Below, one piece after another: positions 1 to 21,458 of a stretch of 31,664 bases of DNA. Each line of letters opens with the position of its first letter. Position 1 is the first letter of the stretch. Source of the DNA: a virus; the IMG/VR virus record IMGVR_UViG_3300029893_000002, one strand, 5' to 3'. Both the position numbers and the translations under genes were made by a program. Under the pieces are notes generated by a model that saw only the letters and a program-made list of their open reading frames with translations, was not told where the DNA came from and did not search any database.

Positions 1-480
1 GAGCCGGTGCTCGGCGAGTACGTGTCCGAGGACGTGGACGCCGCCATCGGCGAGTACGTCCAGGACGGCGGCTACTTCGAGGCGGGCGTCAACCCGGCCG
101 ACCAGCGGTCGATCGACGGCATGATCGACGTCGCCGAGGCGCAGGCCGGCGTGGGCGCGAACGTCTACGAGGCGGCCGCGGGCGTCGGCCAGACGCTCAC
201 CAGGGACTACATGGTGAGCGGCCTCGGGGCGAGCGTCTACGAGGCGGCCGCCGGTCTCGGCGCCGGGCCCTGGCGCTCGCCGCAGATGGGAAGGCGCCTC
301 GCGCAGCGCGTCTTCCAGCGACGCGACCTCCCCGAGGTCAACACCGAGCTCGCCCCGCAGCCCATGAAGCGGATCCCGCAGGGCGAGGGGTCCATCGAGC
401 CGATCGCGCCGCGCGCGGCGCACGGCTACGGCTACGGGATCTTCGGAGCCAACCTCTTCGACTCGATGCTGAGCGGCTGA
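1..480 (+). CDS. 5'-truncated Gly/Ala/Tyr-rich repeat protein, candidate virion protein
   Basis: Frame is open from base 1 to TGA at 480. Internal repeats [LI]GEYV x2 and VYEAAAG[VL]G x2 (nt 163-189, 235-261). High-GC3 codons. Confidence 0.7.
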   Translation, partial: EPVLGEYVSEDVDAAIGEYVQDGGYFEAGVNPADQRSIDGMIDVAEAQAGVGANVYEAAAGVGQTLTRDYMVSGLGASVYEAAAGLGAGPWRSPQMGRRLAQRVFQRRDLPEVNTELAPQPMKRIPQGEGSIEPIAPRAAHGYGYGIFGANLFDSMLSG

Positions 481-485
481 GCTCG

Positions 486-655
486 GCCGCCTGACAACAC
501 GAACGTCTCCCGCGCTGCGATAGGGGACGCCCGAAAGACCCCTGCCCCTGGGGGTTTTCGACAGCGCGGGAGCGCCCCTCCGGGGGCGCGAACTCAGTCC
601 AGGGGTGAACGTCGGTCAGGGGCGCGGCGGGGGCTCTCTCCGGTCTGAGAGGGCC
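486..655 (+). promoter_or_regulatory. Structured intergenic region / 5' leader upstream of the candidate major capsid gene
   Basis: Perfect 11-bp stem 507-517/562-572; hairpins at about 532-560, 572-589 (GCGCCCC-TCCG-GGGGCGC) and 632-655; CCTGAC 490-495 can pair with GTCAGG 615-620. Confidence 0.5.
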
Positions 656-685
656 TGAGGTAGGCAGGAAGGAACGAGGCACGAC

Positions 686-1372
686 ATGCCCAAGATCGTC
701 GGAACTCGCGAGCGCATCCATCAGCCGTTCTACGACTCGCTGGTGCGGGTCGACGGCAGCACCGACCTTCGGGTCACGCCGGTCAACGGCTTCGGCGCGC
801 TGACGGCGCGCACGCAGCTGTTCGTCCGGCAGGGTGCGGACCAGTCCATCAGCAACCTCTCGACCGGCGGGTTCTTCCCGTCCGACCAGACCTTCGTGGT
901 CCTGGCGGTGCGGGTGTGGACCTACTTCCGGTTCAACCTCGAGGGCATCGCCAACGTGACGCCGGCGCAGGTCTCCGACCGCGTCATGCGGGTCCACAAG
1001 CTGTACCACCAGGCGGAGAACCAGCTCTTCTGGGAGCTGTCCGCCGGCGACAAGCCGCAGCTGGTGACCTTCACGGCGTACACGCCGTTCGCGGGCGGCC
1101 TCGACGGCTTCTTCGCGGACTCGCGTCTGCCGCGGGCGAACAACGGCGTGCCCACCTCGGCCGCGCTGATGCGGCTCGCCCGGCCCATCCTCATCCCGCC
1201 CCGCCAGGGCTTCAAGGTCATCGCGGTGGCCTCGGCCATCGGCGCGGGCGCGGGCACGTCCTTCATCGACCAGGTGAACGGCGTCGACGAGAACGGCGCC
1301 AACAACCCGGACGACATCACGAAGGACGTGAAGTACCTCATCGACGGCATCCACTCGCGCGACGTCCTCTAG
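686..1372 (+). CDS. Putative single-jelly-roll major capsid protein
   Basis: 228 aa, beta-strand-rich, purine-rich RBS, very biased codon usage. The pattern QPFYD..SNLxxGGxFPxxQTFVVxAVRV..NGVP..LARPILI..QGFKV..IDG resembles, from memory, jelly-roll capsid proteins of tailless prokaryotic proviruses. Fold unverified. Confidence 0.55.
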   Translation: MPKIVGTRERIHQPFYDSLVRVDGSTDLRVTPVNGFGALTARTQLFVRQGADQSISNLSTGGFFPSDQTFVVLAVRVWTYFRFNLEGIANVTPAQVSDRVMRVHKLYHQAENQLFWELSAGDKPQLVTFTAYTPFAGGLDGFFADSRLPRANNGVPTSAALMRLARPILIPPRQGFKVIAVASAIGAGAGTSFIDQVNGVDENGANNPDDITKDVKYLIDGIHSRDVL

Positions 1373-1402
1373 TCGCGCGCGCGGCCCCGTCACCACTACG
1401 CA

Positions 1403-1487
1403 CGCGCACGCGAGGGTGCGCGACAGGACGGCGGCCGTCGGGCTAGCGAGCTCGGCGGCCGCTTACCTGCCCCTGGATCCCAGGGGC
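1403..1487 (+). terminator. Hairpin cluster after the candidate capsid gene (terminator/attenuator or mRNA stabiliser)
   Basis: 14-bp stem 1431-1444/1449-1462 (two G-U pairs) followed only by TTA; further stems 1403-1422 and 1469-1487. Confidence 0.45.
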
Positions 1488-1553
1488 GGTGGCGCGGGAC
1501 TCGGAGGCTGCGAGGAGTAGCCGACGAGGACCGGGCCGAAAGGAGACTGACCG

Positions 1554-2444
1554 GTGAGCCAGCCCCAGAACCCGAACCAGGTCGTGCGCCAGCTGCGCGG
1601 TCGCATGGTGGCCCTCGAGGAGGCGCTCGCCGACCGCGACAACCAGCTCAAGCAGCACCAGCAGACGGTGCGCCGCCTCGAGAAGTGGATCGAGCGGGCG
1701 TCGAAGCGCATCAAGTACATCGAGGACATCCCGGGCAAGCGCGTCCCGTACTTCCTCAACTTCGAGATCGAGATCCCGCCGCAGGTGAACCAGGACGGCG
1801 CGGCCGTGACCGTCCGGGGGCAGACGTTCCACGACGTCCAGCCCATCAGCATGGACGGCCCGTTCATCTGCACGCAGTACCTCGCGGCCTTCCGGGCGAA
1901 GACCTACTCGCTCGGCCCGACGCAGACGCGCGCGAACGACCAGGCGGCGGGGACCGAGGTCTTCACGCCGCTCACCGGCCGCTTTCGCCCGATCGCCTCG
2001 ACGGCCGACCCGTTCTCGGGCGCCTACATCGGGCCGGCGATCGGCGGCCAGGCCGCGGCCGACGCGACGCTCGTCAACACGTTCCGGCCGGGCACGATCG
2101 ACTTCCTCTTCGAGGTCAAGGACGACGGCACGAACCGGCTTCGTCAGAACGACATCCGGACCCCGAGCCGGTACCTGTTCAGCGAGTTCGACCGGCCGCT
2201 GTACATGCCGGTGAGCGATTTCTTCGCGCGCGGCTCGTCGGTGCGCATCAACGTCTCGCCGACGCGCGAGCTCGGCCTGGTCGAGTTCAACTACGTCGCC
2301 TACAACGGCATCGCGCCGGGCGACGAGGCGCCGATGGATCCCGAGGCGTCGGACAACGGCCGCGTCGTCTTCGCCATCGGAGGCACGCTCACCTTCACGA
2401 TGCTGGGCTACAAGATCCTCCAGGCGCAGACGCCCGCGGTGTAG
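1554..2444 (+). CDS. Putative second/minor jelly-roll capsid protein with N-terminal coiled coil
   Basis: GTG start with AAAGGAG RBS. About 55-aa heptad helix, then a beta-rich domain (ISMDGPFIC..FEVKDDGTNRLRQN..RPLYMP..FARGSSVRINV..LTFTMLGYK). Confidence 0.5.
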   Translation: MSQPQNPNQVVRQLRGRMVALEEALADRDNQLKQHQQTVRRLEKWIERASKRIKYIEDIPGKRVPYFLNFEIEIPPQVNQDGAAVTVRGQTFHDVQPISMDGPFICTQYLAAFRAKTYSLGPTQTRANDQAAGTEVFTPLTGRFRPIASTADPFSGAYIGPAIGGQAAADATLVNTFRPGTIDFLFEVKDDGTNRLRQNDIRTPSRYLFSEFDRPLYMPVSDFFARGSSVRINVSPTRELGLVEFNYVAYNGIAPGDEAPMDPEASDNGRVVFAIGGTLTFTMLGYKILQAQTPAV

Positions 2445-2447
2445 TGC

Positions 2448-3161
2448 GTGCGGAGCCGTCCAGGAGCCATTCGTCCCCAGCACCCGACCCCGCTCATGCC
2501 GCGGGGCGGCGGCGGCCCGTCCTCCACGCCCGTCAGCATCACCAATGGCTACTTCGCGCGCCTTCCGCAGCGCGGCCACGTCTTCTTCCGCCGGTTCTTC
2601 GTCCAGTCGTTCCCGCGCCCGATCGTCAAGGATCCGCAGCAGCTCGGGCTCGGCGCGGACTTCACGCCGGGCACGCCTCGCACCTTCCGGCTGGCGCGCT
2701 TCGAGATCCCCAAAAACCAGGTGATCGTCTTTCGAGACGTCATCTTCACGGCGAGCCAGAAGGGCGGCATCGATCTGTCCGATCTGCGGCCGGTCGCGCC
2801 GCACCGGCTCGCGACGTACGTGTCCTACGAGTTCATGATCGGCGGCCAGTCCGGCGTGGACCTCGGATCGAACATCACGGGCGCCGGCGGCCTTCTCAAC
2901 CAGGATGCGGCGGCGGCAGGCAACCTCGCGACTGCGACGGTCGGCTCGGCGAGCGGCGCGGGTTCGGTCTACGCCTTCGGCGGCTCCATCGCCCGCGGGC
3001 TAGACCAGGACAACTTCGCGCTCTACGGATGGAGTGGCCAGCTCGTGGACGTCCGGTTCCACGTGCTCAGGCCGCCGCCGCTCGAGGTCGTGCGCATCAG
3101 CGTCGAGCTCAGTGGGTGGTTCATCGGCGCCGAGAAGCTCCGGCAACTCCTGGGGGACTGA
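2448..3161 (+). CDS. Beta-rich candidate structural protein (third jelly-roll-like/vertex protein)
   Basis: Directly follows 1554-2444; alternating hydrophobic strands ending ISVELSGWFI. Start could be ATG 2496. Confidence 0.45.
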   Translation: MRSRPGAIRPQHPTPLMPRGGGGPSSTPVSITNGYFARLPQRGHVFFRRFFVQSFPRPIVKDPQQLGLGADFTPGTPRTFRLARFEIPKNQVIVFRDVIFTASQKGGIDLSDLRPVAPHRLATYVSYEFMIGGQSGVDLGSNITGAGGLLNQDAAAAGNLATATVGSASGAGSVYAFGGSIARGLDQDNFALYGWSGQLVDVRFHVLRPPPLEVVRISVELSGWFIGAEKLRQLLGD

Positions 3162-3173
3162 TCAAGGGCCATG

Positions 3174-3307
3174 TTTCGCGCGTCTGAATGGGGGTCGGGG
3201 TCGAAAAAGAGGCAGTAAGTCCTCAAAAAAAATGCTCCGTAGGCACATGACCTCGGGCAGCCCTGAGAGCGTAGCGGCGGCTCCGGCCTCCATTCAGACG
3301 CGCGAGA
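3174..3307 (+). ncRNA. Candidate ~134-nt structured RNA closed by a 30-bp stem
   Basis: 3174-3203 pairs with 3278-3307: 25 Watson-Crick plus 5 G-U pairs, no true mismatch on + strand RNA. Internal hairpins 3209-3224 and 3252-3267; A-tracts in the loop. Confidence 0.6.
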
Positions 3308-3309
3308 AC

Positions 3310-3318
3310 TGGTAAGGT
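3310..3318 (+). promoter_or_regulatory. Candidate extended -10 promoter
   Basis: TGGTAAGGT (TGn-TAnnnT), 8 nt upstream of ATG 3327. Confidence 0.35.
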
Positions 3319-3326
3319 AGGACCCA

Positions 3327-4205
3327 ATGACCCAGGGGCGGCTCCGACGTGTGGACATCCAGCGACGGCGAGAAGGCCGTGCGATCGTGCTCTTGTACCC
3401 GAAGCGCCGGGTGCAGTGGCTCGAGCGCATCTACGGCCAGCCGCCGGGCGTCTTCGCGGTCGCGGCCGCCGAGGACGTCCCCTGGCCCGAGGAGCTGCAG
3501 CAGCTCGCGGCCGAGATCGGCTACGACCTCGACCGCCACCCCCTCAGGCGCCCGTTCATGGAGGCGGTCGTCGAGGCCGTCGCGGCCGACCACATGGTGC
3601 GGGCCGACGAGATCCTGACCGAGATGACGGGCACCGAGCTCGAGTGGTCCGATCCGGACCGAGTCCGAGCCGAACAGGACCACGTCCGGGCGCTCGGCAA
3701 GCTCGAGCGGGTGAAGGACGAGCTCCGGCGCGACCTCGAGCGGCGGCGGCGCCAGGCGGTCCCGTCGGGCGCCACCGATGACCTCGCCGAGGCCGAGGCC
3801 GCCCTCGCGCCCGCGCGCGCCGCCGGAACCGTCCCGCAGGGTTCGCGCCGGCAGCTCCTCGCCATCGGGCGCAGCCTGCTCGGCGGTGAGCCGGGCTGGT
3901 ACTACGGAAGCGACACGATGCTCTGCGATGCGCCGCGGGCCGAGGCCCTCGGGCGCGCGATGGCGGCGGCGGCCCGCACCGGCGCCCCCCAGCTGGTCCT
4001 GCACTGGGACGGAGAGTGGCCGGTCGTCGTGCGGCGCATCGACGGCCGCGGACGGATCACCTACCGGATCGAGGAGGAGCAGGTCGGTCCGATCGAGGAG
4101 GAGAAGCATGGCACGGCGGAAATGGAGCGCGCGGGACGAGCGGGAGACAGCGAAGAGGATCGGCACGACGCTGCGCCTGCGCCTGGGCCGGGAGTCGCTG
4201 GCTGA
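3327..4205 (+). CDS. Hypothetical protein (292 aa)
   Basis: Coding-like codon bias; no recognised family; 3' end overlaps the next gene. Confidence 0.7.
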   Translation: MTQGRLRRVDIQRRREGRAIVLLYPKRRVQWLERIYGQPPGVFAVAAAEDVPWPEELQQLAAEIGYDLDRHPLRRPFMEAVVEAVAADHMVRADEILTEMTGTELEWSDPDRVRAEQDHVRALGKLERVKDELRRDLERRRRQAVPSGATDDLAEAEAALAPARAAGTVPQGSRRQLLAIGRSLLGGEPGWYYGSDTMLCDAPRAEALGRAMAAAARTGAPQLVLHWDGEWPVVVRRIDGRGRITYRIEEEQVGPIEEEKHGTAEMERAGRAGDSEEDRHDAAPAPGPGVAG

Positions 4206-4635
4206 GCGCGTCCTGATCTGGCAGGCGGTGGAGCCGCTCACCGATCTGGCGGGCGACCGGTACGCCGGCGTTCGGCAGGACGGATTCTTCATGGGGCTCT
4301 TCGACAAGTCGGAGGCCGATGCGATCGGCGAACTGCTCTTCCGGTTCAACACGACGGTGGACGCGTTCGCGGAGGCGCTCGAGAAGGTCGAGGGCATCGA
4401 TCGCGAGAAGGCCGAGAAGATGGCCGAGGACAGCGTCATGATCGAGGCCACGAGCGGCTGGAGCGGCAATCCGCTCGCGATCCTCGTCTCGACCGAGGCG
4501 GGGATTCCGGATCCGTTCACCTACCCCGAGGCACAGGAGCTCTGGGACGCCGCGATGAAGGAGCTCAACAAGGAGTACAAGGCCTACTGGGACAGCATCA
4601 ACCCCGGCGTCCAGATCATCTACTTCGAGGACTAG
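4108..4635 (+). CDS. Hypothetical protein (175 aa)
   Basis: ATG 4108 after GAGGAGGAG RBS, in the frame of ORF 3778-4635. Basic N-terminus, acidic body. Confidence 0.75.
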   Translation: MARRKWSARDERETAKRIGTTLRLRLGRESLAERVLIWQAVEPLTDLAGDRYAGVRQDGFFMGLFDKSEADAIGELLFRFNTTVDAFAEALEKVEGIDREKAEKMAEDSVMIEATSGWSGNPLAILVSTEAGIPDPFTYPEAQELWDAAMKELNKEYKAYWDSINPGVQIIYFED

Positions 4636-4639
4636 CGAG

Positions 4640-4921
4640 ATGTCGTACCACCGCGTTCGCCCGCTCGGCGCCCCCCCGATCCCCAACTGGAGCCCGACCT
4701 TCGCGTTCGCGCAGTCGGTCGATCCGTACCTCTGGCGGGCGTCACCGCCGGGCGCGATCTTCGAGCCCTACGGCTGGCACGGCGCCATGAACGTCGGAAT
4801 GCCGATGCGCTACTCGAGGCACATCGACTACGTGCGGTCGCCGGCCGGCGTCTCGATGGTGCCGCACCGGGGCGGCGGTCTCGGCTCGCTCGCCGCCGCG
4901 GGCATCCTCGCGGTGCTGTAA
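4640..4921 (+). CDS. Small Pro/Gly/aromatic-rich protein with hydrophobic C-terminus (candidate virion protein)
   Basis: RPLGA near the N-terminus; GGGLGSLAAAGILAVL at the end. Confidence 0.65.
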   Translation: MSYHRVRPLGAPPIPNWSPTFAFAQSVDPYLWRASPPGAIFEPYGWHGAMNVGMPMRYSRHIDYVRSPAGVSMVPHRGGGLGSLAAAGILAVL

Positions 4922-4930
4922 GGAGATCCG

Positions 4931-5539
4931 GTGAGCCGAAAGCGACGCCGCAAGAAGCATCATCCCGGGGGATTCGACATCCTCGAGTCGTTGATCGATC
5001 ACGGCGTCGATCGCATGGCCGACCGGGTGCGCGACGTCATCGGTCATGTCTCCGAGCGCTTCGTCGACGAGGAGGAGATCGCGCAGGGCGCAGGCTACCC
5101 CTGCTCGTGGGTCGATCCGCACTCTGGCGTCCCGTGTCCCGGGCTCACGCGTCTCGTCTGTGCGTCGTGCCGAAAGCCGTTCTGCAACGAGCACTGGGAG
5201 TTCCGCAACCGGGACGAGTTCTGCATCTGCCGCCGCTGCACGGACTTCCTCTTCGCCGCTGGCCGAAAGGAGTTCAAGCGGATCCTCAAGCAGCGGGCCG
5301 CCCAGCGCCGGGCGCCGCCCGCGGGCCCGATGGGGCCGACGGGACCCGCGCCGTGGGAGATCCTCGGCGTTCAACCGGACGCGTCGGTGCAGGAGATCAA
5401 GCGCGCCTACCGGCAGCGGGCGTCCAAGGTCCACCCCGACATGGTCCCGGCCGAGGAGCGCGAGGCGGCGAGCGAGCAGTTCGTCGTCCTCACCAAGGCC
5501 TACGACGCGCTGATCGCCGCGGCACGCAAGGCTGGGTAG
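4931..5539 (+). CDS. Zn-finger plus C-terminal DnaJ (J-domain) protein
   Basis: PWEILGV..ASVQEIKRAYRQRASKVHPD..F..LTKAYDAL is a J-domain with HPD motif. Upstream CASC..FCNEH..CICRRC cluster. AAGGAG RBS. Confidence 0.88.
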   Translation: MSRKRRRKKHHPGGFDILESLIDHGVDRMADRVRDVIGHVSERFVDEEEIAQGAGYPCSWVDPHSGVPCPGLTRLVCASCRKPFCNEHWEFRNRDEFCICRRCTDFLFAAGRKEFKRILKQRAAQRRAPPAGPMGPTGPAPWEILGVQPDASVQEIKRAYRQRASKVHPDMVPAEEREAASEQFVVLTKAYDALIAAARKAG

Positions 5540-5572
5540 GGGGGCGTGGGGTTTCGGCGTAATGCGCCGCCA

Positions 5573-5581
5573 TGGTAGAGT
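5573..5581 (+). promoter_or_regulatory. Candidate extended -10 promoter
   Basis: TGGTAGAGT in the intergenic gap before the AGGAGGA RBS of the basic-protein gene. Confidence 0.4.
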
Positions 5582-5602
5582 TTTCGCTGAGAAGGAGGAG
5601 TC

Positions 5603-6187
5603 ATGGCAGGAGCCACCGGATACAAGATCGGCCGCGTCAGCGTGGTCGGCCGCGACAACGTGTCGGCGGCGCGGGTCGCCCACTACAAGCGCCCGATGAC
5701 GCCGGCCGAGGCCAGGGACGAGGTCAAGAAGAAGTCCCGCGGCAAGCACCGGTCGATCTACGTGGCACTCGCCCCCGATGGGCGCCTGGTGGGCGCCGCG
5801 GTGAACGGCCGCTCGTCCAAGGGCAAGCACGCCCGGGGCGCGGCCAAGCTCGTCCGCAAGAAGTTCGGGATGCGCAAGGTGCGCAGCTCGAAGCGTCGGA
5901 CGAGCCGCCGCAAGGGCTCGCGCCGGCGGACCTCGCGCCGCCGGACGAGCAAGCGGGTCGCGCACGCCCGTCGGCGGCGAACCAGCAAGCGGGGCTCGCG
6001 CCGGCGGACCTCGAAGCGACGGAGCTCGAAGCGAGGATCGAAGCGCCGATCGTCGAAGCGCCGGAGCTCGCGCAAGAGCACGAAGCGGAGCCGGGCGGCG
6101 AAGAAGGCCTGGCGCACGCGCAAGCGGCTCTACGGCAAGAAGGGGACCAAGCGCCGGACGAGCCGCCGTAGGTCTCGTCGCCGCTGA
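5603..6187 (+). CDS. Protamine/histone-H1-like Arg/Lys/Ser-rich DNA-condensing protein
   Basis: Strong RBS. C-terminal half is almost only R/K/S/T/G/A, with six RRTS and three RRSS motifs. Confidence 0.75.
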   Translation: MAGATGYKIGRVSVVGRDNVSAARVAHYKRPMTPAEARDEVKKKSRGKHRSIYVALAPDGRLVGAAVNGRSSKGKHARGAAKLVRKKFGMRKVRSSKRRTSRRKGSRRRTSRRRTSKRVAHARRRRTSKRGSRRRTSKRRSSKRGSKRRSSKRRSSRKSTKRSRAAKKAWRTRKRLYGKKGTKRRTSRRRSRRR

Positions 6188-6249
6188 GCGACTTCGGCTA
6201 CCATTCAGGGGTCCGCTGGGCGAACAGGGGCCGCCCGGCCGAGGAGACG

Positions 6250-6834
6250 ATGCCCAAGATCGTCGGATGGACGGAAGGGACACTAGGAGCGATGTACGCC
6301 ACACAGCTCGCGCCGTATCGGCCCCAGATCTATTCGGTCGGCTCGCGAACGCGCTACCGGCAGTACCCGGACTACACCGTCGCGCCGATTCCGGGCACGG
6401 GCTTTCGCAACCGCCAGCTGGTTTTCGCGCGCCAGCAGCTCCTTCTCGGCCTCGGCCGCCTCCCGACGCGCTGGCCACGGATCCGCGGCATCACCTCCCG
6501 CGGGGTCGTCGCGCCGACCGATCTCCGGCGCGGGGTCGTCGCCCCGACCGATCTGCGCCGCCGCGGCGGTCGCTACTCGGCCGGCCTCGGCGCGACGACG
6601 CGTGAGACGGTCCAGACCATCGCGGACGTGATCGCCAATCCCGAGCGTGCGCTCCAAACGCGGAGCGCGGCCATCGTGGCGGCGCTCGATCGGCACGTCG
6701 TTCAGCCGACGGTCGAGCGCGTGGGGAGCGCCATGGTGCCCTACGTGGTGAAGTACGTGCTCCCACCCTTCGCGCTCCTGCTCACCCTGACGGCGGTGGG
6801 CGCGTATTACGCGCACAAGGCCGCCAAGAAGTAG
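6250..6834 (+). CDS. Membrane-anchored candidate virion protein
   Basis: GAGGAG RBS; starts MPKIVG; LGLG and AGLG motifs; C-terminal TM helix followed by KAAKK. Confidence 0.7.
   Translation: MPKIVGWTEGTLGAMYATQLAPYRPQIYSVGSRTRYRQYPDYTVAPIPGTGFRNRQLVFARQQLLLGLGRLPTRWPRIRGITSRGVVAPTDLRRGVVAPTDLRRRGGRYSAGLGATTRETVQTIADVIANPERALQTRSAAIVAALDRHVVQPTVERVGSAMVPYVVKYVLPPFALLLTLTAVGAYYAHKAAKK
6499..6558 (+). repeat. In-frame 30-nt tandem duplication (RGVVAPTDLR x2)
   Basis: 6499-6528 vs 6529-6558 differ only at synonymous positions. Confidence 0.9.
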
Positions 6835-6868
6835 CAACGACGACGACCATTTCCCGGAGGCAGCGCGC

Positions 6869-7453
6869 GTGAGCATCAAGAAAACACCGGTCATTCGCCT
6901 GTCCGAAGAGCAGGCGGCCGCTGGCAAGCGGATGTGGAACCTCAGCGACGAGGTCGGCCGCCTCTCCGGCAGTTCGGTCGATCACGAGAGCGCGGCGCCC
7001 CGGACGTGGATCCGGTGGATCGACGGAAAGGGCTTCGAGCGGGCAGTCGTCGAGTGCGAGATCTACATCCAGCCCCGCTACTCCGATCACGAGGAGGCGG
7101 TCGGCGTCCTGCACGGCATGTGTCCATGCTGCGGAGAGGGGTTCATCGTCCGCGAGGACAACAAGACGATGACGCTCGATCACATCGAGTACCGCAAGGC
7201 GCCCGAGTGGCTCAGGGTCCACTACGCGTACGACCAGCGCGAGCGTGGGCGCCCCCAGATCAGCGACACGGACAAGATCCCCATCGTCAACAGCCCCGAG
7301 CGGTGGGCCTGCGACTACTGCAAGGAGTGGGTCGTCCGCATCATCGACAACGTCGCCTCCGACGATCACAGCGGCATCACCCGGATCACGGTGCCGCAGA
7401 GCGCGCTCGTCGGGACGCGCCGACCCGAAGGGGGCGGTCAGATCGACATCTGA
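6869..7453 (+). CDS. Hypothetical Zn-binding protein
   Basis: GGAGG RBS, GTG start; CPCC and CDYC pairs. Confidence 0.75.
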   Translation: MSIKKTPVIRLSEEQAAAGKRMWNLSDEVGRLSGSSVDHESAAPRTWIRWIDGKGFERAVVECEIYIQPRYSDHEEAVGVLHGMCPCCGEGFIVREDNKTMTLDHIEYRKAPEWLRVHYAYDQRERGRPQISDTDKIPIVNSPERWACDYCKEWVVRIIDNVASDDHSGITRITVPQSALVGTRRPEGGGQIDI

Positions 7454-7467
7454 GGAGGTGAGCGCGC

Positions 7468-7872
7468 ATGTACGGCAATCACGGCATGGGCATCTTCGGC
7501 AGTCACCTACCGGGCACCGAGCGCGCCCATGGGCGACACGCCCGAGCGCAGGCAACTCAGGTCGACTACCGCACCTCCGGCGTCTTCGGCTATGACGCGC
7601 CCCCGGGCTATGCGCTCGTCCCGCTCGGGCAGATCGAGCAGGCGGAGCTCGCGACGCGCCGCAAGCAGATCTGGACCGGCATCATCGTCGCTCTGGTCGC
7701 GGGTGCGATCATCTACCTTCTCGTCAAGAGCACGCAGCCGACGCCACAGCAGGTGGTCGGAAAGATGTCGACGGCCCGCATCGCCAAGAACCTCTACAAG
7801 CGGCTCGAGGCGAACGGCCGTGGGAGCGAGTCGGTCCGCCGGTCGCTCGCCCAGATGTCCAAGGAGGACTGA
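7468..7872 (+). CDS. Single-pass membrane protein, candidate virion membrane protein
   Basis: GAGGAGG RBS; GMGIFG, GVFG and PLG motifs precede TM IWTGIIVALVAGAIIYLLV. Confidence 0.75.
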   Translation: MYGNHGMGIFGSHLPGTERAHGRHARAQATQVDYRTSGVFGYDAPPGYALVPLGQIEQAELATRRKQIWTGIIVALVAGAIIYLLVKSTQPTPQQVVGKMSTARIAKNLYKRLEANGRGSESVRRSLAQMSKED

Positions 7873-7873
7873 G

Positions 7874-8185
7874 ATGGCGCGGTGTCCCTACTTTCTCGAC
7901 GTCTCGTGGCGCCCCGAGACCGTCGACGACGAGGACGAGCTCGTCGAGGCCCTCCAGGGCGCGGTGCGCAAGGCCTACGACAGCGAGGGCTACGGCGGCG
8001 GCATGAGCGCGATCGGGTTCGACTTCAAGTCGAAGCGACAGGCGGAGCATGCCGCTGAGCGCGTGATCACGTACTTCGAGCGCGCTGGTTTCGACGAGGA
8101 GGACTACGCCGTGCAGATCTTCCTCGACGACCGCGTGATCAGCTTCGGCTCGAGGCGCGGCGATCCGATTAGCCTCTCCTCATGA
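7874..8185 (+). CDS. Hypothetical acidic protein (103 aa)
   Basis: ATG 7874 after AAGGAGG; 3' part of ORF 7529-8185. Confidence 0.75.
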   Translation: MARCPYFLDVSWRPETVDDEDELVEALQGAVRKAYDSEGYGGGMSAIGFDFKSKRQAEHAAERVITYFERAGFDEEDYAVQIFLDDRVISFGSRRGDPISLSS

Positions 8186-8484
8186 TCTACTGCGCGCAGG
8201 TCACGCTGGTCTCGCTCGAGGGGATCGGCGATGACGAAATGGATGCGCTCTACGCCTTCTTCGAGGACAAGATGGTCGTGAGCGGGGGTGACCCGGGTCG
8301 CGTCGTCGAGGCCGTCGGCGTCCTTCGCGCCCCGACGCGCGTCGGGCCGAAGAGCCTTCACAACGAGCTCACGCACGGGCTCCAGGAGGCCGGCTTTCGG
8401 GGCACCGTGACGAGCGAGTGGCGGCCGGCGAAGAGCGTATTCGCAGGCGGCACCGAGACGCTCTACACGGTGCTCATGCCGTGA
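8182..8484 (+). CDS. Hypothetical protein (100 aa)
   Basis: ATGA and GTGA overlaps with both neighbours. Confidence 0.7.
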   Translation: MIYCAQVTLVSLEGIGDDEMDALYAFFEDKMVVSGGDPGRVVEAVGVLRAPTRVGPKSLHNELTHGLQEAGFRGTVTSEWRPAKSVFAGGTETLYTVLMP

Positions 8485-9647
8485 GGTTCTACCTGACGAC
8501 CCACGAGCCCTCGTGGCTCAGCCGCCCCGAGATCGCGGGCGATACCTCGTGGGGGATCGAGGGCACGCCCCCGAGCGCTGGCGACGTGCCGCTCTTCGTG
8601 AGCCGTCACCGCCTCTCGCGGCTCAAGCGCCTGCGGCCGGCGGTTGCTCCGTGGGTGCTCGACTCGGGCGGCTTCACCGAGCTCAGTCCGCACTTCGGAG
8701 GCCCAGGCTACTGGCGGATCGACGCCGACGAGTACATCGACGAGGTCCTTCGCTACCGCGAGGAGATCGGCTGGCTCGAGTGGGCGGCGCCCATGGACTG
8801 GATGTGCGAGCCAGAGGTGGTCGAGCACGCGACGGCGCCTTCGGCACGGGGCTGGGAGATGCGCGAGGCCATCGCCCTTCACCAGCGCCGTACGACGGCC
8901 AACTACCTCGAGCTGCGCCAGCTTGCGCCCGAGGTACCGTGGGCGCCTGTGCTCCAGGGCTGGCACATGGCCGACTACGAGGAGCACGTCCGGGTGTACG
9001 AGGAGAATGGCGTCGATCTCACCGACCCCGATCTGCCCGCGGTCGGGGTGGGATCTGTCTGCAGGCGCTCGGACGATCCGGGGACGGGAGACCTCTTCCT
9101 TCGGCTCGACCTCATGTTCCGTGAGCTACGGCGCCACGGCATCGAGAACCTCCACGCGTTCGGCTACAAGACCGAGGGGCTGCTCACGACGGGGGGCGTC
9201 CTTGCGAGTGCCGACTCGCTCGCCTGGTCGTACGATGCGCGGCAGGCCGCCAATGCGATGCGGCGGCTCGGCTACGACGGAGGCGTCCTGCCGGGCCACT
9301 ATGACCCCGGGTTCCGCGATCCGGTGACGGGGCGCCTCATCCGGCACACGAGCTGCTCGAACTGCATCGTCTACGCCCTGCTCTGGCGGACGAACCTTCT
9401 CTGGCGGCTGCGGGAGGCCTACGGGTACTGGGAGCAGCTGGCCGACCTCACCACCGTCCCCATCGCGCCCTGGCACGCCGGCGAGGTCCTCGAGTCGGCG
9501 CCGGCGGGGCCGGTCCCAGCGCCCTCGAGCCTCGTCGTCCCGATCGACAAGCGCCGCGGGGTCGAGCTCGGGCGGCCGTCCCGAACGCCCGAGACCGAGT
9601 CGGCGACCGCGCGGCCAGCGCCGCTCGAGCAGCTCAAGCTGTTCTAG
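8481..9647 (+). CDS. dpdA: TGT-like transglycosylase, DpdA-type 7-deazaguanine DNA modification protein
   Basis: GTG 8481 overlaps the upstream stop. Motifs LDSGGF, PMDWMCEP, PVLQG, GVGSVCRR, LHAFGYK, SADSLAWS, CSNC match the phage TGT/DpdA-like pattern. Confidence 0.7.
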   Translation: MRFYLTTHEPSWLSRPEIAGDTSWGIEGTPPSAGDVPLFVSRHRLSRLKRLRPAVAPWVLDSGGFTELSPHFGGPGYWRIDADEYIDEVLRYREEIGWLEWAAPMDWMCEPEVVEHATAPSARGWEMREAIALHQRRTTANYLELRQLAPEVPWAPVLQGWHMADYEEHVRVYEENGVDLTDPDLPAVGVGSVCRRSDDPGTGDLFLRLDLMFRELRRHGIENLHAFGYKTEGLLTTGGVLASADSLAWSYDARQAANAMRRLGYDGGVLPGHYDPGFRDPVTGRLIRHTSCSNCIVYALLWRTNLLWRLREAYGYWEQLADLTTVPIAPWHAGEVLESAPAGPVPAPSSLVVPIDKRRGVELGRPSRTPETESATARPAPLEQLKLF

Positions 9648-9964
9648 TCGGCGCCCAGGCGAAGGGCCTCGAGCTCGGCCTCGAGCCGCCGCACCTTGGC
9701 CTCGAGCTCGGTCCGCTGGCGATACTTGTCGGCCTCGAGCCGCCGGACGGTCGCCTCGAGATCGAGCACCTCCTGGCGGAAGCACTCGGTCGCCGCCATC
9801 TCGGCCTGCCGGGTGCGGTTGGCGACGGTCTGGGCCATCTGGGTGACGATGGCCCTGGCGCCGGGCGGCATCGACTCGAGCCCGAGCTCGTTCCGGAGGA
9901 GCTCGAGGTGAACGTCGAGGAGATCGAGCGTCGTCTCGCTCGGCTTGTCGCGCTCCTCGGCCAC
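9644..9964 (-). CDS. Coiled-coil hypothetical protein
   Basis: Heptad repeats LEATVRRLEA..LEAKVRRLEAELEAL; converges on the dpdA-like gene. Confidence 0.65.
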   Translation of the reverse strand: MAEERDKPSETTLDLLDVHLELLRNELGLESMPPGARAIVTQMAQTVANRTRQAEMAATECFRQEVLDLEATVRRLEADKYRQRTELEAKVRRLEAELEALRLGAD

Positions 9965-9967
9965 GGC

Positions 9968-10183
9968 TCAGGACGGATAGAAGGCGACCCGCCGCAGGAA
10001 GAACGACGGATGGGTGAATCGAACGATCAGGGGCACGCGCTCCATCTCGAGGCCGCCTGGCCGTTCGATGCCGACGATCGCCGTGGCCGAAAAGAACCTG
10101 TCCCGGAAGCCGAGGATGAGGCCACCCGCGACACGGCTTCCCACGTCGAGCTCGCGGCCGGTCCTGGTGTCGATGACCCGCAT
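9968..10183 (-). CDS. Small hypothetical protein (71 aa)
   Basis: MRVIDTRTGRELDVG...; ATG 10183 lies just downstream of a good -10 element. Confidence 0.6.
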   Translation of the reverse strand: MRVIDTRTGRELDVGSRVAGGLILGFRDRFFSATAIVGIERPGGLEMERVPLIVRFTHPSFFLRRVAFYPS

Positions 10184-10191
10184 GGGATCCG

Positions 10192-10200
10192 ATTCTACCA
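10192..10200 (-). promoter_or_regulatory. Extended -10 promoter
   Basis: TGGTAGAAT on the - strand, 8 nt before ATG 10183, in a divergent gap. Confidence 0.5.
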
Positions 10201-10241
10201 CGCTTCCCAACCCCTCCAGGCTGTGGTAACCCCGTCGGACA

Positions 10242-11615
10242 ATGTCCGATAACCGTGACAATCTGATCGCCCAGGTGGCCGACGAGTACGAGGAGCGGAC
10301 CGAGGAGGAGCTCGACGCGCTGCGCCAGGCCATGAAGCAAGGGCAGATCCTCAGCGGCAACTACGTCGCCGAGCCCGTGCCGGGGAGCGACGTGCCCGGG
10401 ATCTTCCTCTCGTACGGCGCGCACCTGCGCTCGGGCTACGCCCATGTCGGCTACGCGCTCTCGCGCGTGCTCGAGCGGGACCTCGATCTGCCCGTCAAGC
10501 TCATCCCCCACCGCACCCTCGACATCGCGCTCGACCGCGTGCCGAAGGAACGCGAGGCCGACGTCGGCCGGTGGATGGGCGCGCCGGTCGGCATCGGAAA
10601 GCTCCTCGTCGTCACGATGCCGCTCATCGAGAGCTCCTACATGACCGGCCTCGCCTCGCGCCTCGTCACCTACACGACGCACGAGACCGATCGCATCTCG
10701 AAGGAGGCGGCCGCCCGGGTGTTTCTCTTCGAGAAGATCTGGTGCAAGAGCCCCCACGCCTGGCGCGCGTTCCGGCGCGCCGGCGTCGAGGAGGAGCGCC
10801 TTCGGCTGCTCTATCCGCCGATCGTCGGCGGCCCGTGGAAGTGCTCGGTGCGAGAGAGCCGCGGCGCGCCCGTGTCGGCCGAGCGGCCCTTCCGGTTCGG
10901 TTTCGTCGGCCAGTGGCAGCCCCGAAAGGGTATGCACGACCTCGTCCGCGCCTACTACCGCGCCTTCGCGCCCGACCAGCCCGTGCGGCTCGAGCTCCGG
11001 ACGAGCAGCCTCTTCAACGAGACGGTCTCGCAGCTCGAGCACCGGATCCGGCACGAGATCTCCGAGATTCGCTCCGAGTTCGCGCAGGACACCTTCCCTC
11101 CCATCCGCGTGCTCACGGGCATCAAGCTCACCGATCAGGAGCTCATCGACTGGATCGGCGAGCTCGACGCCTTCGCCAACCCCTCCTACGGCGAGGGGAC
11201 GGGCATCCCGCACGTCTACGCGATGGCGCAGGGCGTCCCGATGGTGACGACCCTCTACGGCGCGGTGGGCGACCTGATTCGCTCGGCGTACAACGCCGAA
11301 CCCGGCAAGGGGTTCTGCGGCCCCCATGGCCTTGTCGCTCATCGGCTCGAGCGGATCAGCACCGACATGCTGCGCATCAACCGCGCCTACGACTACGAGC
11401 AACTCTGGGGCCGCTACGAACCCGCGGATTTTGCCGACGCGATGGCGGACGTGTTCTGTCTCGGGCGCCAAGCGGGCGAGCAGTACCTACGCGACCCGGG
11501 AGCGCTCATCGAACGGGCGACAACCCTCCATGGACAGGAGCGCGCGCAGGCGGAGCTCCGGAAGCTGCTGGCCGAGGTCCTGCCCGAGAAGTACGCCGAG
11601 GAGTGGCTCCGTTGA
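10242..11615 (+). CDS. GT-B fold (GT4-like) glycosyltransferase
   Basis: SGYAHVG; FGFVGQWQPRKGMHDLVRAY; FANPSYGEGTGIPHVYAMAQGVP. Confidence 0.88.
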   Translation: MSDNRDNLIAQVADEYEERTEEELDALRQAMKQGQILSGNYVAEPVPGSDVPGIFLSYGAHLRSGYAHVGYALSRVLERDLDLPVKLIPHRTLDIALDRVPKEREADVGRWMGAPVGIGKLLVVTMPLIESSYMTGLASRLVTYTTHETDRISKEAAARVFLFEKIWCKSPHAWRAFRRAGVEEERLRLLYPPIVGGPWKCSVRESRGAPVSAERPFRFGFVGQWQPRKGMHDLVRAYYRAFAPDQPVRLELRTSSLFNETVSQLEHRIRHEISEIRSEFAQDTFPPIRVLTGIKLTDQELIDWIGELDAFANPSYGEGTGIPHVYAMAQGVPMVTTLYGAVGDLIRSAYNAEPGKGFCGPHGLVAHRLERISTDMLRINRAYDYEQLWGRYEPADFADAMADVFCLGRQAGEQYLRDPGALIERATTLHGQERAQAELRKLLAEVLPEKYAEEWLR

Positions 11616-12703
11616 TCGATCTCGTCGGATACCTCGGATCGCGGTTCAGCTACGCGACACACACGGCCGAGGTCGCGCGCGCTCTTCACCGCGAGAAACT
11701 CCTCGGGCGGATCTACAATCTCGATCCACACCATCTTGAGGACTACGCGGACGAGGAGTGGTTCGCCGCCTCGGCAGTCCACGGCCCATCGAGCGGGTCG
11801 GCACTCATCATCGCGCCACCACGCGAGGAGATCGACGCCTTCGCGAAGTGCTACGGGGAGGAGCGGGCGGCGCTCTTTCTATGCCCGAACACGAACCGGA
11901 TCGATGGCAAGAAGGTCGCTGGCGCATTCAAGCGGTTCGTCGTCCCGAGCCTGTACTGCGTGCGAACCGTCCGGGAGACGTTTCCTGACGCCGAGGTCCT
12001 GCTGGCGCCGCTCGGCTGCCCAGACGACTACTACGAGAAGCGTCAGCGCACGATCGGCGCCCTCCGGAGCAGGCTCGACAATCGGCCTGTGTGCATGCAC
12101 TTCACGACCGACTTCTTCCTCCCCGGCCGCAAGGGAACCGAGGAGCTCATTCTCGGATGGGCAGACTGCAACCTGTCCGAGCGGGCCGATCTCGTCATCC
12201 ACTGCCCCTTCCAGATGGTGGACCAACTCTTCTACCTCTGCGCGGACGCGGGGCTCTACGAACCCCATGTCCGCGTCGTCTCGGCACAGAGCCCGCAGGG
12301 ATCGACAGCGGGAGGTCTCGGCCAGCTGATGCTCAACTCGGACCTGGTCGTCCAGCCATCACGCGCCGAGGGCTTCGGGATGATGATCCTCGGCGCTCTC
12401 GTCCATGGGGTGCCGGTCGTGACGCCCTGCGCCACTGGCCAAGAGGGCTTCCTGCCGTTTTTCACGGCATGGCAGCCAATCCCGACCGCAGGCGAGGGCC
12501 CGCTCCACGGCGAGCTCGGCGACGCGCCGATTCTCGTGCCCTACGACATCGGCCGAGCCATCCACGCGGCACTCGACAGCCGCTCGAGGCTGCTTGATCG
12601 CGCCGAGGACGACGGCTACGTCGCAAGACGATGGACCTGGTCCGCCGTCCTCGAGCGGTGGATCGAGGTCGCACGAACCATCGGAGGGACCAATGCTCAG
12701 TGA
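11612..12703 (+). CDS. Second GT-B fold (GT4-like) glycosyltransferase
   Basis: TTG 11612 overlaps the upstream TGA (GAGGAG RBS). RKGTEELI; VQPSRAEGFGMMILGALVHGVPVV; WTWSAV. Confidence 0.85.
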   Translation: MIDLVGYLGSRFSYATHTAEVARALHREKLLGRIYNLDPHHLEDYADEEWFAASAVHGPSSGSALIIAPPREEIDAFAKCYGEERAALFLCPNTNRIDGKKVAGAFKRFVVPSLYCVRTVRETFPDAEVLLAPLGCPDDYYEKRQRTIGALRSRLDNRPVCMHFTTDFFLPGRKGTEELILGWADCNLSERADLVIHCPFQMVDQLFYLCADAGLYEPHVRVVSAQSPQGSTAGGLGQLMLNSDLVVQPSRAEGFGMMILGALVHGVPVVTPCATGQEGFLPFFTAWQPIPTAGEGPLHGELGDAPILVPYDIGRAIHAALDSRSRLLDRAEDDGYVARRWTWSAVLERWIEVARTIGGTNAQ

Positions 12704-13001
12704 GAAGGCGCGTGCGGCGATGATCCGCACCATCGAAAAGCACCGCGAGGACAAGGTCATCTACAAGCTCCGCGCGAAGTCGACCGTGCTCAAGGTCATG
12801 GACGGAGGCCGGACGGTGATTCCGATCGAAGAGCACGTCACGATCGAGTCGTTGAAGTCCGAGCTACTCGATCAGAGCCTCGTCCATATCCGGATGATCA
12901 CGGCCGATAACCACAACGCCGACTGCTACGTCGCGCTCGAGGACATCCTGTTCCTCTGGGTTCCGGGTAGCATCCGCACGGCTACGATCCAGAAGACGTG
13001 A
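12693..13001 (+). CDS. Hypothetical protein (102 aa)
   Basis: ATG 12693 after GGAGG; overlaps the GT stop. Confidence 0.7.
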   Translation: MLSEKARAAMIRTIEKHREDKVIYKLRAKSTVLKVMDGGRTVIPIEEHVTIESLKSELLDQSLVHIRMITADNHNADCYVALEDILFLWVPGSIRTATIQKT

Positions 13002-13171
13002 CCGAGCAGGGCGGCTACACGAAGGTGACGTTCCGGACGAAGGCGGCGCTCATCGAGAGGCTGCGCCGCCTAGCCGAGAAGAGAGGGCTCGTCCGTCTGA
13101 GCGGCAGACCGAACGTGAGCGCGCTACTCAATCAGATCATCGAGGAGTACCTGGACCGAGAAAGGGGTTGA
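12998..13171 (+). CDS. Ribbon-helix-helix DNA-binding protein (57 aa; not in the ORF track)
   Basis: Manual translation MTEQGGYTKVTFRTKAALIERLRRLAEKRGLVRLSGRPNVSALLNQIIEEYLDRERG gives strand-helix-helix; fills the gap exactly with a GTGA overlap. Confidence 0.75.
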   Translation: MTEQGGYTKVTFRTKAALIERLRRLAEKRGLVRLSGRPNVSALLNQIIEEYLDRERG

Positions 13172-13173
13172 CC

Positions 13174-13776
13174 ATGAGCGACGACAAGCTTGCCAAGGCC
13201 GCGAACGACGACCTCCGAAAGCAGGAGGAGGAGCTCCAGCGCCAGAAGCGCGAGCAGGGGAGGGACGAGCCGACCGTCCCGGCCTTCATCGTGCCGAGCA
13301 CCGCCGAGCGGGCGCAGCTCGCGACACAGGCGGATCTGAGTCGGGCGAAGCTCGCCGGCGTTCCGGTCGAGACGCGCCGCCGCTATCTCTGCGTCGCCTG
13401 CGGGTGGGACCGTACGCTCGAGTTCGACCCGAACGACCCTGGGGACGCGGCCATCCTCCAGGAGTGCGACGGCGACCTCGACAACTACCAGGGACCGTGC
13501 CCGAGCTGCCAGGGGATGACGCTGATGCCCTACGAGAAGGTCGAGGAGGGCGCGTCGGTGAACGAGCTCGCGCGCCAGCAGCTCGAGGACACCGCCCACA
13601 CGGTCACCGACGCCGTCATCGACAAGCTCGAGGAGCGCTTCTTCGACAAGTTCCAGGGCGCCGCGGCCGCCGCGGCCGCCGCCGCTCAGGGCGAGGGGGG
13701 TGCGGGCGAAGAGGGGGGCGCCGGCGAAGAGACGAGCGAGGAGCCCCCTTCGTCGACCGAGGAGGAGTCCGGGTAG
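13174..13776 (+). CDS. Zn-ribbon protein with acidic tail
   Basis: CVACG..CPSCQG; Ala/Gly/Glu low-complexity C-terminus. Confidence 0.75.
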   Translation: MSDDKLAKAANDDLRKQEEELQRQKREQGRDEPTVPAFIVPSTAERAQLATQADLSRAKLAGVPVETRRRYLCVACGWDRTLEFDPNDPGDAAILQECDGDLDNYQGPCPSCQGMTLMPYEKVEEGASVNELARQQLEDTAHTVTDAVIDKLEERFFDKFQGAAAAAAAAAQGEGGAGEEGGAGEETSEEPPSSTEEESG

Positions 13777-14477
13777 AGGTTTCGGACTTCGACGTGGACC
13801 ACGTCCTTACGCCACAGGCCGTGGCCCACGTCGAGGATCCGGATCACCTTGCCCGAGTCGCGCATGAGGTTCTCGTCGTGGAGGTCGGTCCAGTCGAGCC
13901 CGACCTGTCGTAGCTCGCGGACGCCGCGCGCGACTTGGTAGAGGATGACCTTGGCGCGCTTGACGAGCTGCGGATCGATGTCCTCCTCCTCGCGCCGAAT
14001 GTACTCGAGCCAGCGCGCCATGCTGGCGTCGGTGTGCGGGATCTCGAGCCGCATCTCGTCGTAGAGGTACCAGATGAGGTCGAGGAGCCACTGGTCCTGC
14101 TTGCTCAGGGGCTCGAGCAGCTGGCGCTCGATGGCGTACCACTGATCCCACCCGTCGGCGACGATCGTCTCGGGCAGCGCGAAGACCCGGTAGACGTCGA
14201 CCACGTGCGTGTTGCGCCGTCCGGCGAGGAGAGCGCAGGCGACAGCCTCGTCCTTGTCACGGGTGAGCTTGAGGACGTGTCGCCCTTCGATCACGTACGC
14301 GCGCCCGTAGCGGCCGGCGCCGAGCCGTTGCCCCCCCTGGGCGCTCGAGCGCACGTCGCGCAGGCCGAGGAGCGCGAGCGGGCGCCGGTAGAGCGCGATC
14401 ACGTCCTCGGGCAGCATCGCGGGCGGCAGCTCGTCGTCGTAGTCGTAGGAGCGGTCGTCGTCGGAGGTCGAGAGCAT
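13686..14477 (-). CDS. Protein kinase-like enzyme
   Basis: Gly loop LGAGRYG, VLK, helix-C Glu (DKDEA), catalytic loop DLHDEN, ILDVG. Start uncertain. Confidence 0.8.
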   Translation of the reverse strand: MLSTSDDDRSYDYDDELPPAMLPEDVIALYRRPLALLGLRDVRSSAQGGQRLGAGRYGRAYVIEGRHVLKLTRDKDEAVACALLAGRRNTHVVDVYRVFALPETIVADGWDQWYAIERQLLEPLSKQDQWLLDLIWYLYDEMRLEIPHTDASMARWLEYIRREEEDIDPQLVKRAKVILYQVARGVRELRQVGLDWTDLHDENLMRDSGKVIRILDVGHGLWRKDVVHVEVRNLYPDSSSVDEGGSSLVSSPAPPSSPAPPSP

Positions 14478-14576
14478 ACGCGGTAGTTCCCCTGTGGAGC
14501 CGCTGGGTTGAGCCGAGGCTCGTAGACCGGGGGCGGCGTGTAGTATCATGCCACTGAGCCGATCAGGAGGTCCATC

Positions 14577-15023
14577 GTGGGATACCGCCGCCGAGCCTTG
14601 GGATCGGCGCCGAAGCTCGTGCCCGGGCTGACGGCGCCCTCGAGCCTACCTCCGGGCCGGACGGCGCCGTACGACTACGGCGCGCTCCAGCGTCACGGGC
14701 TGCCGCTCGCGCCGGTCGTGCAATACGGCAGCTGGCGGACTGGCCAACCGCACCTCTACCAGTACGGCCGCGACCCCTACCGCGGGCTCGGGAGCGTCTC
14801 GAGGTGGCTCTGCGAGGGCGATCCGGTCATGAGCGAGGCGACCGAGGCCTTCAAGCAGGAGCTCCGCCAGATTTCGAGGGGCGCGATGTTCACGACGGTC
14901 GCGACGGGCCTTGCGGCCGGCGCCCTCGGTGGCCTCCTCGGCAGCACGCTCTGGGGCGCGGTCGCCGGCGGCGCCCTCGGCTACTTCGCGTACGCGACCC
15001 AGGTCGCCATCGCCGAGGGCTGA
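14577..15023 (+). CDS. Membrane protein with glycine-zipper helices, candidate virion protein
   Basis: AGGAGG RBS; Tyr/Pro/Gly-rich N-terminus ending YRGLGS; GLAAGALGGLLG..GAVAGGALG. Confidence 0.75.
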   Translation: MGYRRRALGSAPKLVPGLTAPSSLPPGRTAPYDYGALQRHGLPLAPVVQYGSWRTGQPHLYQYGRDPYRGLGSVSRWLCEGDPVMSEATEAFKQELRQISRGAMFTTVATGLAAGALGGLLGSTLWGAVAGGALGYFAYATQVAIAEG

Positions 15024-15026
15024 TCG

Positions 15027-15884
15027 GTGGCACCCGAGGAGGACCACCTCGGCCATCTCGAGGTGTACTTCAAGCTCATGCAGAGCGAGATCGAGCAGGC
15101 CCGTGACCTGCTCTTCACGAACTGGTGGGCAGCGGGCCCCGCGGCGGTCGATGCCGCCATCCACGACGACGATCTGGACGACCGCATTCGGGAAAAGATC
15201 GAGGCGATCGAGGACGTCGAAGAAGTCTTCGCCGACGACCTCGATCCCGAGGTGGTCGACGCCCTCGCCGAACACGTCGATGTCGGGGCCGCGCTCCACC
15301 AGGTTCACGACCTCGACCCGGCCGAGGCGCCGCTCTGGAGCTACTCGATGATGTACCGCGTGGAGCGCGAGCCCGAATGGCTCCTCCATTGCAGCGACGA
15401 GGCGCACCGGATCGCGAGTGAGGGGTTTCGCCGTGGCGTCGAGGACATCGGCCGCCTCGGGCTGACGACGTACCTGCCCGAGTCGTGGAAGGACTACCCG
15501 GGATACAACTTCGCATTCACGATCCCCGACGCGGCCCGCTACGCCTTCGAGCGGGGCGGCAGGTGCAAGTACGGACGGCACATGGTCCTGCTCAAGGCGC
15601 CATACGTGTACGTCTACCATCATGGCGACTCGGAGCCGCAGGCCATCTTCTGGGGGCCTGACGCCAGAGAGATCGTGCTCGTCAGCGAGGCGTACGGCTC
15701 GCTCGTCGCGAGCCTGCCGTCCGGAGAAGAGCTCGAGGCCGGGTCGATCGACGAGCTCATCGACATGCTCGAGGAGCTTCCCGAGGACGAGCTCAGGCCG
15801 AACACGGGCTACGAGATCGTCGGCTGGGTGGATCAGAAGGAGGCCGAGGAGATCCTCGGCGCTCCCATCGGAGGAAGACGATGA
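15027..15884 (+). CDS. Hypothetical protein, possible ADP-ribosyltransferase-like fold
   Basis: Clearly coding. WLLHCS..IASEGF..GYNFAF..KYG..DSEPQAIFW loosely follows the His / aromatic / acidic-strand ART arrangement; the function call is weak. Confidence 0.4.
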   Translation: MAPEEDHLGHLEVYFKLMQSEIEQARDLLFTNWWAAGPAAVDAAIHDDDLDDRIREKIEAIEDVEEVFADDLDPEVVDALAEHVDVGAALHQVHDLDPAEAPLWSYSMMYRVEREPEWLLHCSDEAHRIASEGFRRGVEDIGRLGLTTYLPESWKDYPGYNFAFTIPDAARYAFERGGRCKYGRHMVLLKAPYVYVYHHGDSEPQAIFWGPDAREIVLVSEAYGSLVASLPSGEELEAGSIDELIDMLEELPEDELRPNTGYEIVGWVDQKEAEEILGAPIGGRR

Positions 15885-16129
15885 GCTATCGCAACGGAGG
15901 CATGCTCGGGCCGCTCGGGGCCGAGGAGTCGACCCCCGAGCAGCCCGGACCCGCCCTCAAGGCGGTCGTCACGAAGCGCGGCTGGGTCGCCGTTCCCGCG
16001 AGGGACGTCCGCGAGCACCTCATGAACCAGCTCACCGTGCTCGGCTTCGGGATCCTGGTCGGGTTCGGCGTTGGTGCCGCGGTCGGGACGATGGTAGGGC
16101 GGCGCAAGATGCGTCCGAACGCGCGCTAG
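15881..16129 (+). CDS. Small membrane protein
   Basis: ATGA overlap; MLGPLGA; TM VLGFGILVGFGVGAAVG; ends RRKMRPNAR. Confidence 0.7.
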   Translation: MSYRNGGMLGPLGAEESTPEQPGPALKAVVTKRGWVAVPARDVREHLMNQLTVLGFGILVGFGVGAAVGTMVGRRKMRPNAR

Positions 16130-19794: not shown

Positions 19795-19797
19795 GGC

Positions 19798-20348: not shown

Positions 20349-20351
20349 GGT

Positions 20352-21448: not shown

Positions 21449-21458
21449 ACCCTCCTCC

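Follow-up and report, generated by a model that had tools for sequence, protein, structure and literature searches.

What kind of particle is made by a large virus whose structural genes seem to encode jelly-roll, membrane and arginine-rich proteins? The question is raised by the IMG/VR virus record IMGVR_UViG_3300029893_000002, from which we analysed a stretch of 31,664 nt (the window), and in particular the gene block at 1-16129. The window belongs to a source contig of 143,041 bp from a subsurface metagenome, and an initial annotation of the DNA had correctly supposed that the element was larger than the window. Our searches of this genome cover the window, and wider genome searches were made in its relatives. 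The viral genome is probably circular, with a length of ~143 kb. As that annotation described, the block is mostly co-oriented, with 23 of its 26 called genes on the plus strand. We think it quite likely that this block makes up the downstream half of a morphogenesis module, that of a large, tailless double-stranded DNA (dsDNA) virus of bacteria. The module includes a cluster of three genes.

686-1372, plus strand: predicted major capsid protein, a single jelly roll of 228 amino acids (aa), from its AlphaFold2 (AF2) model and conservation
1554-2444, plus strand: second candidate capsid protein, 296 aa, with an N-terminal coiled coil and a probable beta domain, from conservation and position
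2448-3161 (likely start 2496), plus strand: third capsid-cluster gene, a candidate penton or minor capsid protein, from synteny

The AF2 model of open reading frame (ORF) 686 built from a diverse alignment is one 228-aa barrel (pLDDT 88.6, pTM 0.86), superseding a first model that used close homologues alone and had a pLDDT of 64.5 and weak matches. Its best match in the PDB is the capsid protein of SPV1 (6OJ0), and the capsid proteins of SH1/HCIV-1 and P23-77 are also among the top solved structures, which supports the jelly-roll fold that had been proposed for this protein. The structural identity with the SPV1 protein is only about 10%. PRD1 P3 compared with 686 had a Foldseek probability of 0.14, and the double jelly roll of PRD1 and PM2 was not found; a capsid protein of the single-jelly-roll type, like VP4/VP10, is what the Portogloboviridae have. 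In the model, 686 folds as a single jelly roll and resembles the SPV1 capsid protein most closely. Its gene is also the most conserved one, with 31-75% identity in all ten relatives, and belongs to a conserved operon in which a long, Arg/Ser-rich, membrane-anchored protein and a series of small membrane proteins come before it.

The initial annotation had read all three tandem proteins as beta-rich; the tandem arrangement holds, and modelling gives a beta-rich protein for 686 only. ORF 1554 was found downstream of the capsid gene in each of the nine genomes compared, and it has 211 homologues and ESM features that match unnamed viral clusters. The third gene is conserved and syntenic in seven genomes from two clades; the Atlas model of its product is of low confidence and has unnamed viral proteins as neighbours. 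The order of the three genes is kept in IMG/VR relatives, namely in all of the first 11 with a long enough locus, so the synteny that had been suggested as a check is present. Profile-profile comparisons among the three proteins gave no significant sign of paralogy, and searches of PDB sequences with two family profiles gave chance or coiled-coil matches only. We infer that 1554 and 2448 encode second capsid, penton or vertex proteins, for which a jelly-roll fold is a candidate. The Helvetiavirae (Halopanivirales) have a pair of major capsid proteins that are both vertical single jelly rolls; here 686 is modelled with such a fold.

Some smaller features of these genes were noted. The gap directly 3' of the third gene (3169-3312) contains a 35-nt imperfect inverted repeat (80%), possibly a terminator or processing site. 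The first 18 nt of 686 (686-703) are identical to those of the transmembrane (TM) protein gene at 6250 (6250-6267), whose homologues in relatives start otherwise. In a 298-kb relative, the capsid gene is interrupted near codon 14 by an insertion of ~757 nt (L010:9244-10000), which matches a group I intron weakly (E 0.0019, under the gathering score) and contains an ORF of 201 aa that is LAGLIDADG-like (E 0.001); the capsid genes of L013 and L014 appear to be split at the same site, before the capsid match. A 104-kb genome (L097; G011 99468-100007) has a second, diverged gene of the capsid family (E 1.6e-18) far from its virion module.

The capsid gene defines a family of large genomes. A word-indexed database held 247 homologues of 686, those listed having 62-79% identity, a profile search returned 100 clusters at the 50% level, and homologues occur on IMG/VR contigs of up to 298 kb. 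ORF 686 had no cultured phage homologue and no Pfam family match, and none of 84 family members matched a PHROG. Ten related contigs were analysed whole. The relatives are viral contigs of 82-171 kb without a recognisable head-tail module, and not ordinary chromosome, in line with the initial annotation. Five of the ten have terminal repeats and are thus closed circles (159.9, 125.0, 122.7, 104.3 and 82.4 kb). A quick tree of the capsid protein groups the window with contigs of 106-171 kb (SH-aLRT 99). The clades have in common 686, 1554 and the third gene, together with genes for a basic membrane protein, a protein with a J domain, two glycosyltransferases, a coiled-coil protein of 775 aa, a transglutaminase-like enzyme in which Cys, His and Asp are invariant, two small proteins and a dual-specificity phosphatase, as well as a kinase-like cluster and a tyrosine recombinase, the last present in most relatives; replication genes vary from clade to clade. 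Three relatives have amidase or M23 peptidase genes (peptidoglycan hydrolases), which points to a bacterial host. Host assignment from GTDB matches was dropped, since these were eight contigs of metagenome-assembled genomes from mixed phyla, and a contig of 106 kb labelled "Planctomycetota" appears to be viral over its whole length. A published description of the lineage was not found in a literature search with little reach into subscription papers.

The initial annotation took P23-77 and SH1 as its model and proposed a scan for an FtsK/HerA (A32/P9-type) packaging ATPase, and this model needs correction, because none was found to be conserved in the relatives. The FtsK model PF01580 had no match in five complete or near-complete genomes in which the controls matched, and the one fragment that matched Pox_A32 (PF04665), in a DnaC-like gene, was below threshold. 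Such searches are insensitive, the ATPases of P23-77 and SH1 matching each other only at E 0.3-0.5. Because packaging ATPases diverge fast, Walker-A motifs were also listed. No window gene is listed in the P-loop census, and in the relatives no Walker-A motif lies in a core gene or is common to the clades; the genes scanned are AAA_24, IstB, SMC-like, MoxR, PIF1 or AAA, with three lacking an assignment. The conserved FtsK/HerA-type ATPase of the Halopanivirales was therefore not found in complete relatives, within the limits of these searches. The closest relative, the 106-kb contig named above, has in its accessory arm, ~26 kb from its capsid gene, a fusion of a HerA/DUF87 ATPase with winged-helix domains (L104:7912-9636; G013 C115). 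Homologues of this gene are lacking in the window and in the nine other contigs, and it was set aside as the packaging motor as a lineage-specific gene of one in ten relatives.

The family could nevertheless have a motor: a diverged or replaced ATPase, host FtsK/HerA or an unannotated core gene might fill a membrane-lined procapsid, as in P23-77 and SH1. Two or three adjoining capsid-like genes, as in the Helvetiavirae, would fit this arrangement, as would the presence of SH1, HCIV-1 and P23-77 among the top fold matches and the low sensitivity of the ATPase searches. The HerA/DUF87 gene also speaks for it, but that gene stands among accessory genes in a single relative. A core gene without annotation could be the motor, there being the 775-aa coiled-coil gene and two small ones, but the P23-77 and SH1 ATPases have a canonical N-terminal Walker A and no core gene has one. 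We regard a motor-filled procapsid as unlikely. No common packaging ATPase and no recognisable head-tail genes were found in the family, which as a whole seems to be without tails or a DNA-packaging motor.

The genes around the capsid cluster include candidates for condensing and enclosing the DNA.

1-480 (ORF 7-480), plus strand: C-terminal part of a large protein (>555 aa) that is rich in Arg, Ser and Lys and has a hydrophobic segment; the gene is immediately upstream of that for the capsid protein
3327-4205, plus strand: hypothetical protein conserved in the near clade, with homologues in relatives
4640-4921, plus strand: small protein with a Gly-rich hydrophobic C-terminus, 44-62% identity in relatives, below the strict TM threshold
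4931-5539, plus strand: protein with a Cys motif and a C-terminal J domain (PF00226, E 3.4e-15), a family core gene in 8 of 9 genomes
5603-6187, plus strand: protamine-like protein by composition, 42% Arg+Lys and 13% Ser
6250-6834, plus strand: C-terminal TM protein with a basic tail, from a strict hydropathy scan
6869-7453, plus strand: conserved Cys-motif protein, 36-50% identity in four relatives
7468-7872, plus strand: small TM protein, from the strict hydropathy scan
14577-15023, plus strand: small Gly-rich hydrophobic protein, 40-64% identity in four relatives, below the strict TM threshold
15881-16129, plus strand: small TM protein with a basic tail, from the strict hydropathy scan

The frame of ORF 7-480 is lengthened by 1189 nt upstream in Logan contig L012, and in all eight related genomes the capsid gene is preceded by a counterpart, a basic ORF of 471-939 aa that has a hydrophobic segment and 41-60 Arg or Lys per 100 aa. 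Its product is a candidate membrane-anchored, DNA-condensing core protein. The protamine-like and J-domain proteins of the initial annotation were both recovered. The gene at 5603, which has a Shine-Dalgarno site, has in common with the large basic gene (L012:1-182) a 37-nt DNA module of 97% identity that encodes a basic motif, and a similar basic gene occupies the same place in L074. Unitigs from the source run support the DNA of the block, at an even depth of ~21-22x; the unitig graph is broken at 6071-6154, a repeat module common to the small and large basic genes, and the gene order across it is matched by synteny in L074, a 75%-identical relative. Where at least five small TM proteins had been claimed, three are clear (6250, 7468 and 15881) and two plausible (4640 and 14577). 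The density of TM genes is higher near the capsid gene than elsewhere in eight of eight genomes. In seven of eight genomes, motifs of the form [GAPS][LM]G, a possible cleavage signal, are ~2-3.5 times denser in the modules upstream of the capsid gene than elsewhere, uncorrected for Gly-rich TM composition.

By analogy with SPV1, we infer an internal membrane and a core role for the basic proteins, the DNA probably being wrapped in arginine-rich protein inside a membrane-lined shell. In the assembly we propose, small TM proteins would mark a patch of host membrane and form the internal vesicle, and basic proteins, bound to the circular genome, would condense it and anchor it at that membrane. 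The jelly-roll proteins would close the shell around the vesicle, 686 building the faces of the icosahedron, so that the shell would be assembled around a nucleoprotein core as in SPV1. More speculatively, the transglutaminase-like Cys-His-Asp enzyme might mature or cross-link virion proteins, the J-domain protein might recruit host DnaK for assembly, and the glycosyltransferases might decorate the virion; a role of the kinase/phosphatase pair in maturation is conjectured from conservation.

Much of this gene content could also belong to a virus- or plasmid-like element that spreads by membrane vesicles or as pleomorphic particles with an envelope, the jelly rolls being coat or spikes. The lack of a motor, the many TM proteins, the circular genomes, the tyrosine recombinase of most relatives and the source runs, which are bulk subsurface metagenomes, would all suit such an element. 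We find it improbable, because the best fold match of 686 is an icosahedral capsid protein, the peptidoglycan hydrolases suggest lytic release and the records come from IMG/VR.

The scanned window proteins had no terminase, portal, HK97 or tail family match, as the initial annotation had stated. Terminase_6N (PF03237) was not found in nine records, nor were Terminase_3, TerL_ATPase and portal (PF04466, PF03354 and PF04860) in the five complete or near-complete genomes, with controls matching. With controls again matching, five relatives had no match to HK97 capsid (PF05065, the one model used out of the several for HK97) or to tail sheath and tape measure (PF04984 and PF10145). The large terminase, portal and tail genes of Caudoviricetes were thus not found. 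That the virus is a tailed phage whose head-tail genes have diverged beyond detection, with 686 as a cement or decoration jelly roll, is very improbable, given six negative head-tail families in complete genomes of three clades, the lack of the family-wide P-loop that a terminase requires, the conservation of 686, unusual for a decoration protein, and the many membrane and basic proteins in the expected place of head-tail genes.

The proposed icosahedral, motor-less particle with a membrane and a basic core is best compared with SPV1, which has a jelly-roll shell, a lipid layer within and a core of nucleoprotein (PMC8459092) and no packaging ATPase (PMC8812541). The expanded jelly-roll lineage of the initial annotation is supported, and because no FtsK/A32/P9-type ATPase was found to be conserved, SPV1 (Portogloboviridae) is probably a nearer model than P23-77 or SH1. 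The family resembles the Portogloboviridae in the fold of 686 and in circular dsDNA and, by gene content, in candidate basic core and membrane proteins and a glycosyltransferase (PMC8459092, PMC8812541); a packaging ATPase was not found in five circular-complete relatives, in searches of low sensitivity. SPV1, however, infects an archaeon (Saccharolobus) and its genome is of about 20 kb, whereas the present genomes are of 82-171 kb and high GC, with peptidoglycan hydrolases and a probably bacterial host, and the core candidate, a membrane-anchored Arg-rich protein of 470-940 aa, is unlike SPV1. The family would work most like a portoglobovirus, yet is not one, given its genome size and host. 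A packaging ATPase is a core gene of the Halopanivirales/Helvetiavirae (PMC5332951), and that of the Sphaerolipoviridae (SH1, HCIV-1, HHIV-2) and Matshushitaviridae (P23-77) was not found here; genomes of the SH1/P23-77 group (Helvetiavirae, Singelaviria) are of 17-31 kb and have no sequence similarity to the family. The family may be a deep branch beside the Singelaviria, which are defined by a vertical single jelly roll (PMC12714852). A bacterial virus with a circular genome of 43.8 kb also has a run of structural genes of ~210-256 aa (gp45-gp47), and BFVD entries of these lengths match 686 with a TM-score of 0.46, but there is no sequence similarity and its gp40 is a P-loop structural protein.

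Large bacterial viruses are generally assumed to be tailed and motor-filled, and the tailless, membrane-lined design is recorded to date only from viruses several times smaller. We lean towards a lineage of class level, widespread and so far undescribed, of dsDNA viruses of bacteria that have circular genomes of 80-170 kb (perhaps 300 kb), single-jelly-roll, membrane-lined, motor-less particles and a membrane-anchored protamine-like condensing protein; it would be the large-genome counterpart of the portogloboviruses, on a deep branch beside the Singelaviria. If so, the single-jelly-roll realm would no longer be confined to a few extremophile viruses of 17-44 kb but would take in large viruses from ordinary habitats, and more than 100 kb would be packed into a jelly-roll shell by co-assembly in a common lineage of soil, sediment and subsurface. 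The proposal that SPV1-like viruses without an ATPase represent the ancestral state (PMC8812541) would become testable. Because no PHROG or Pfam capsid model exists for them, virome surveys miss or mislabel such viruses.

The remaining assigned genes are enzymes and an accessory arm. Searches of the window found neither a tRNA nor an Rfam match.

8481-9647, plus strand: DpdA-like deazaguanine DNA-modification enzyme, accessory (PF23859, E 1.8e-56)
10242-11615, plus strand: GT-B (GT4-like) glycosyltransferase, family core gene, from a domain match
11612-12703, plus strand: second GT-B glycosyltransferase, family core gene, from a domain match
13686-14477, minus strand: protein-kinase-like gene (weak PF00069, E 0.0024), with homologues in the near clade
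18192-31535, minus strand: short genes of phage type that form an accessory arm (HD phosphohydrolase, DUF1643, DUF5131, MazG-like), from domain matches

The stand-alone DpdA-like gene had no match among the ten relatives; its sequence suggests 7-deazaguanine modification of DNA in a tailless virus. Between the block and the accessory arm, 17164-18195 encodes a fusion of a kinase-like N-terminal part (by eye) and a GNAT domain, with no homologue in the relatives. The glycosyltransferases of the initial annotation are the two GT-B genes. In an 82-kb relative (L087-L088, G010 19.7-35 kb), a long run of genes that read by eye as glycosyltransferases and nucleotide-sugar enzymes adjoins the virion module.
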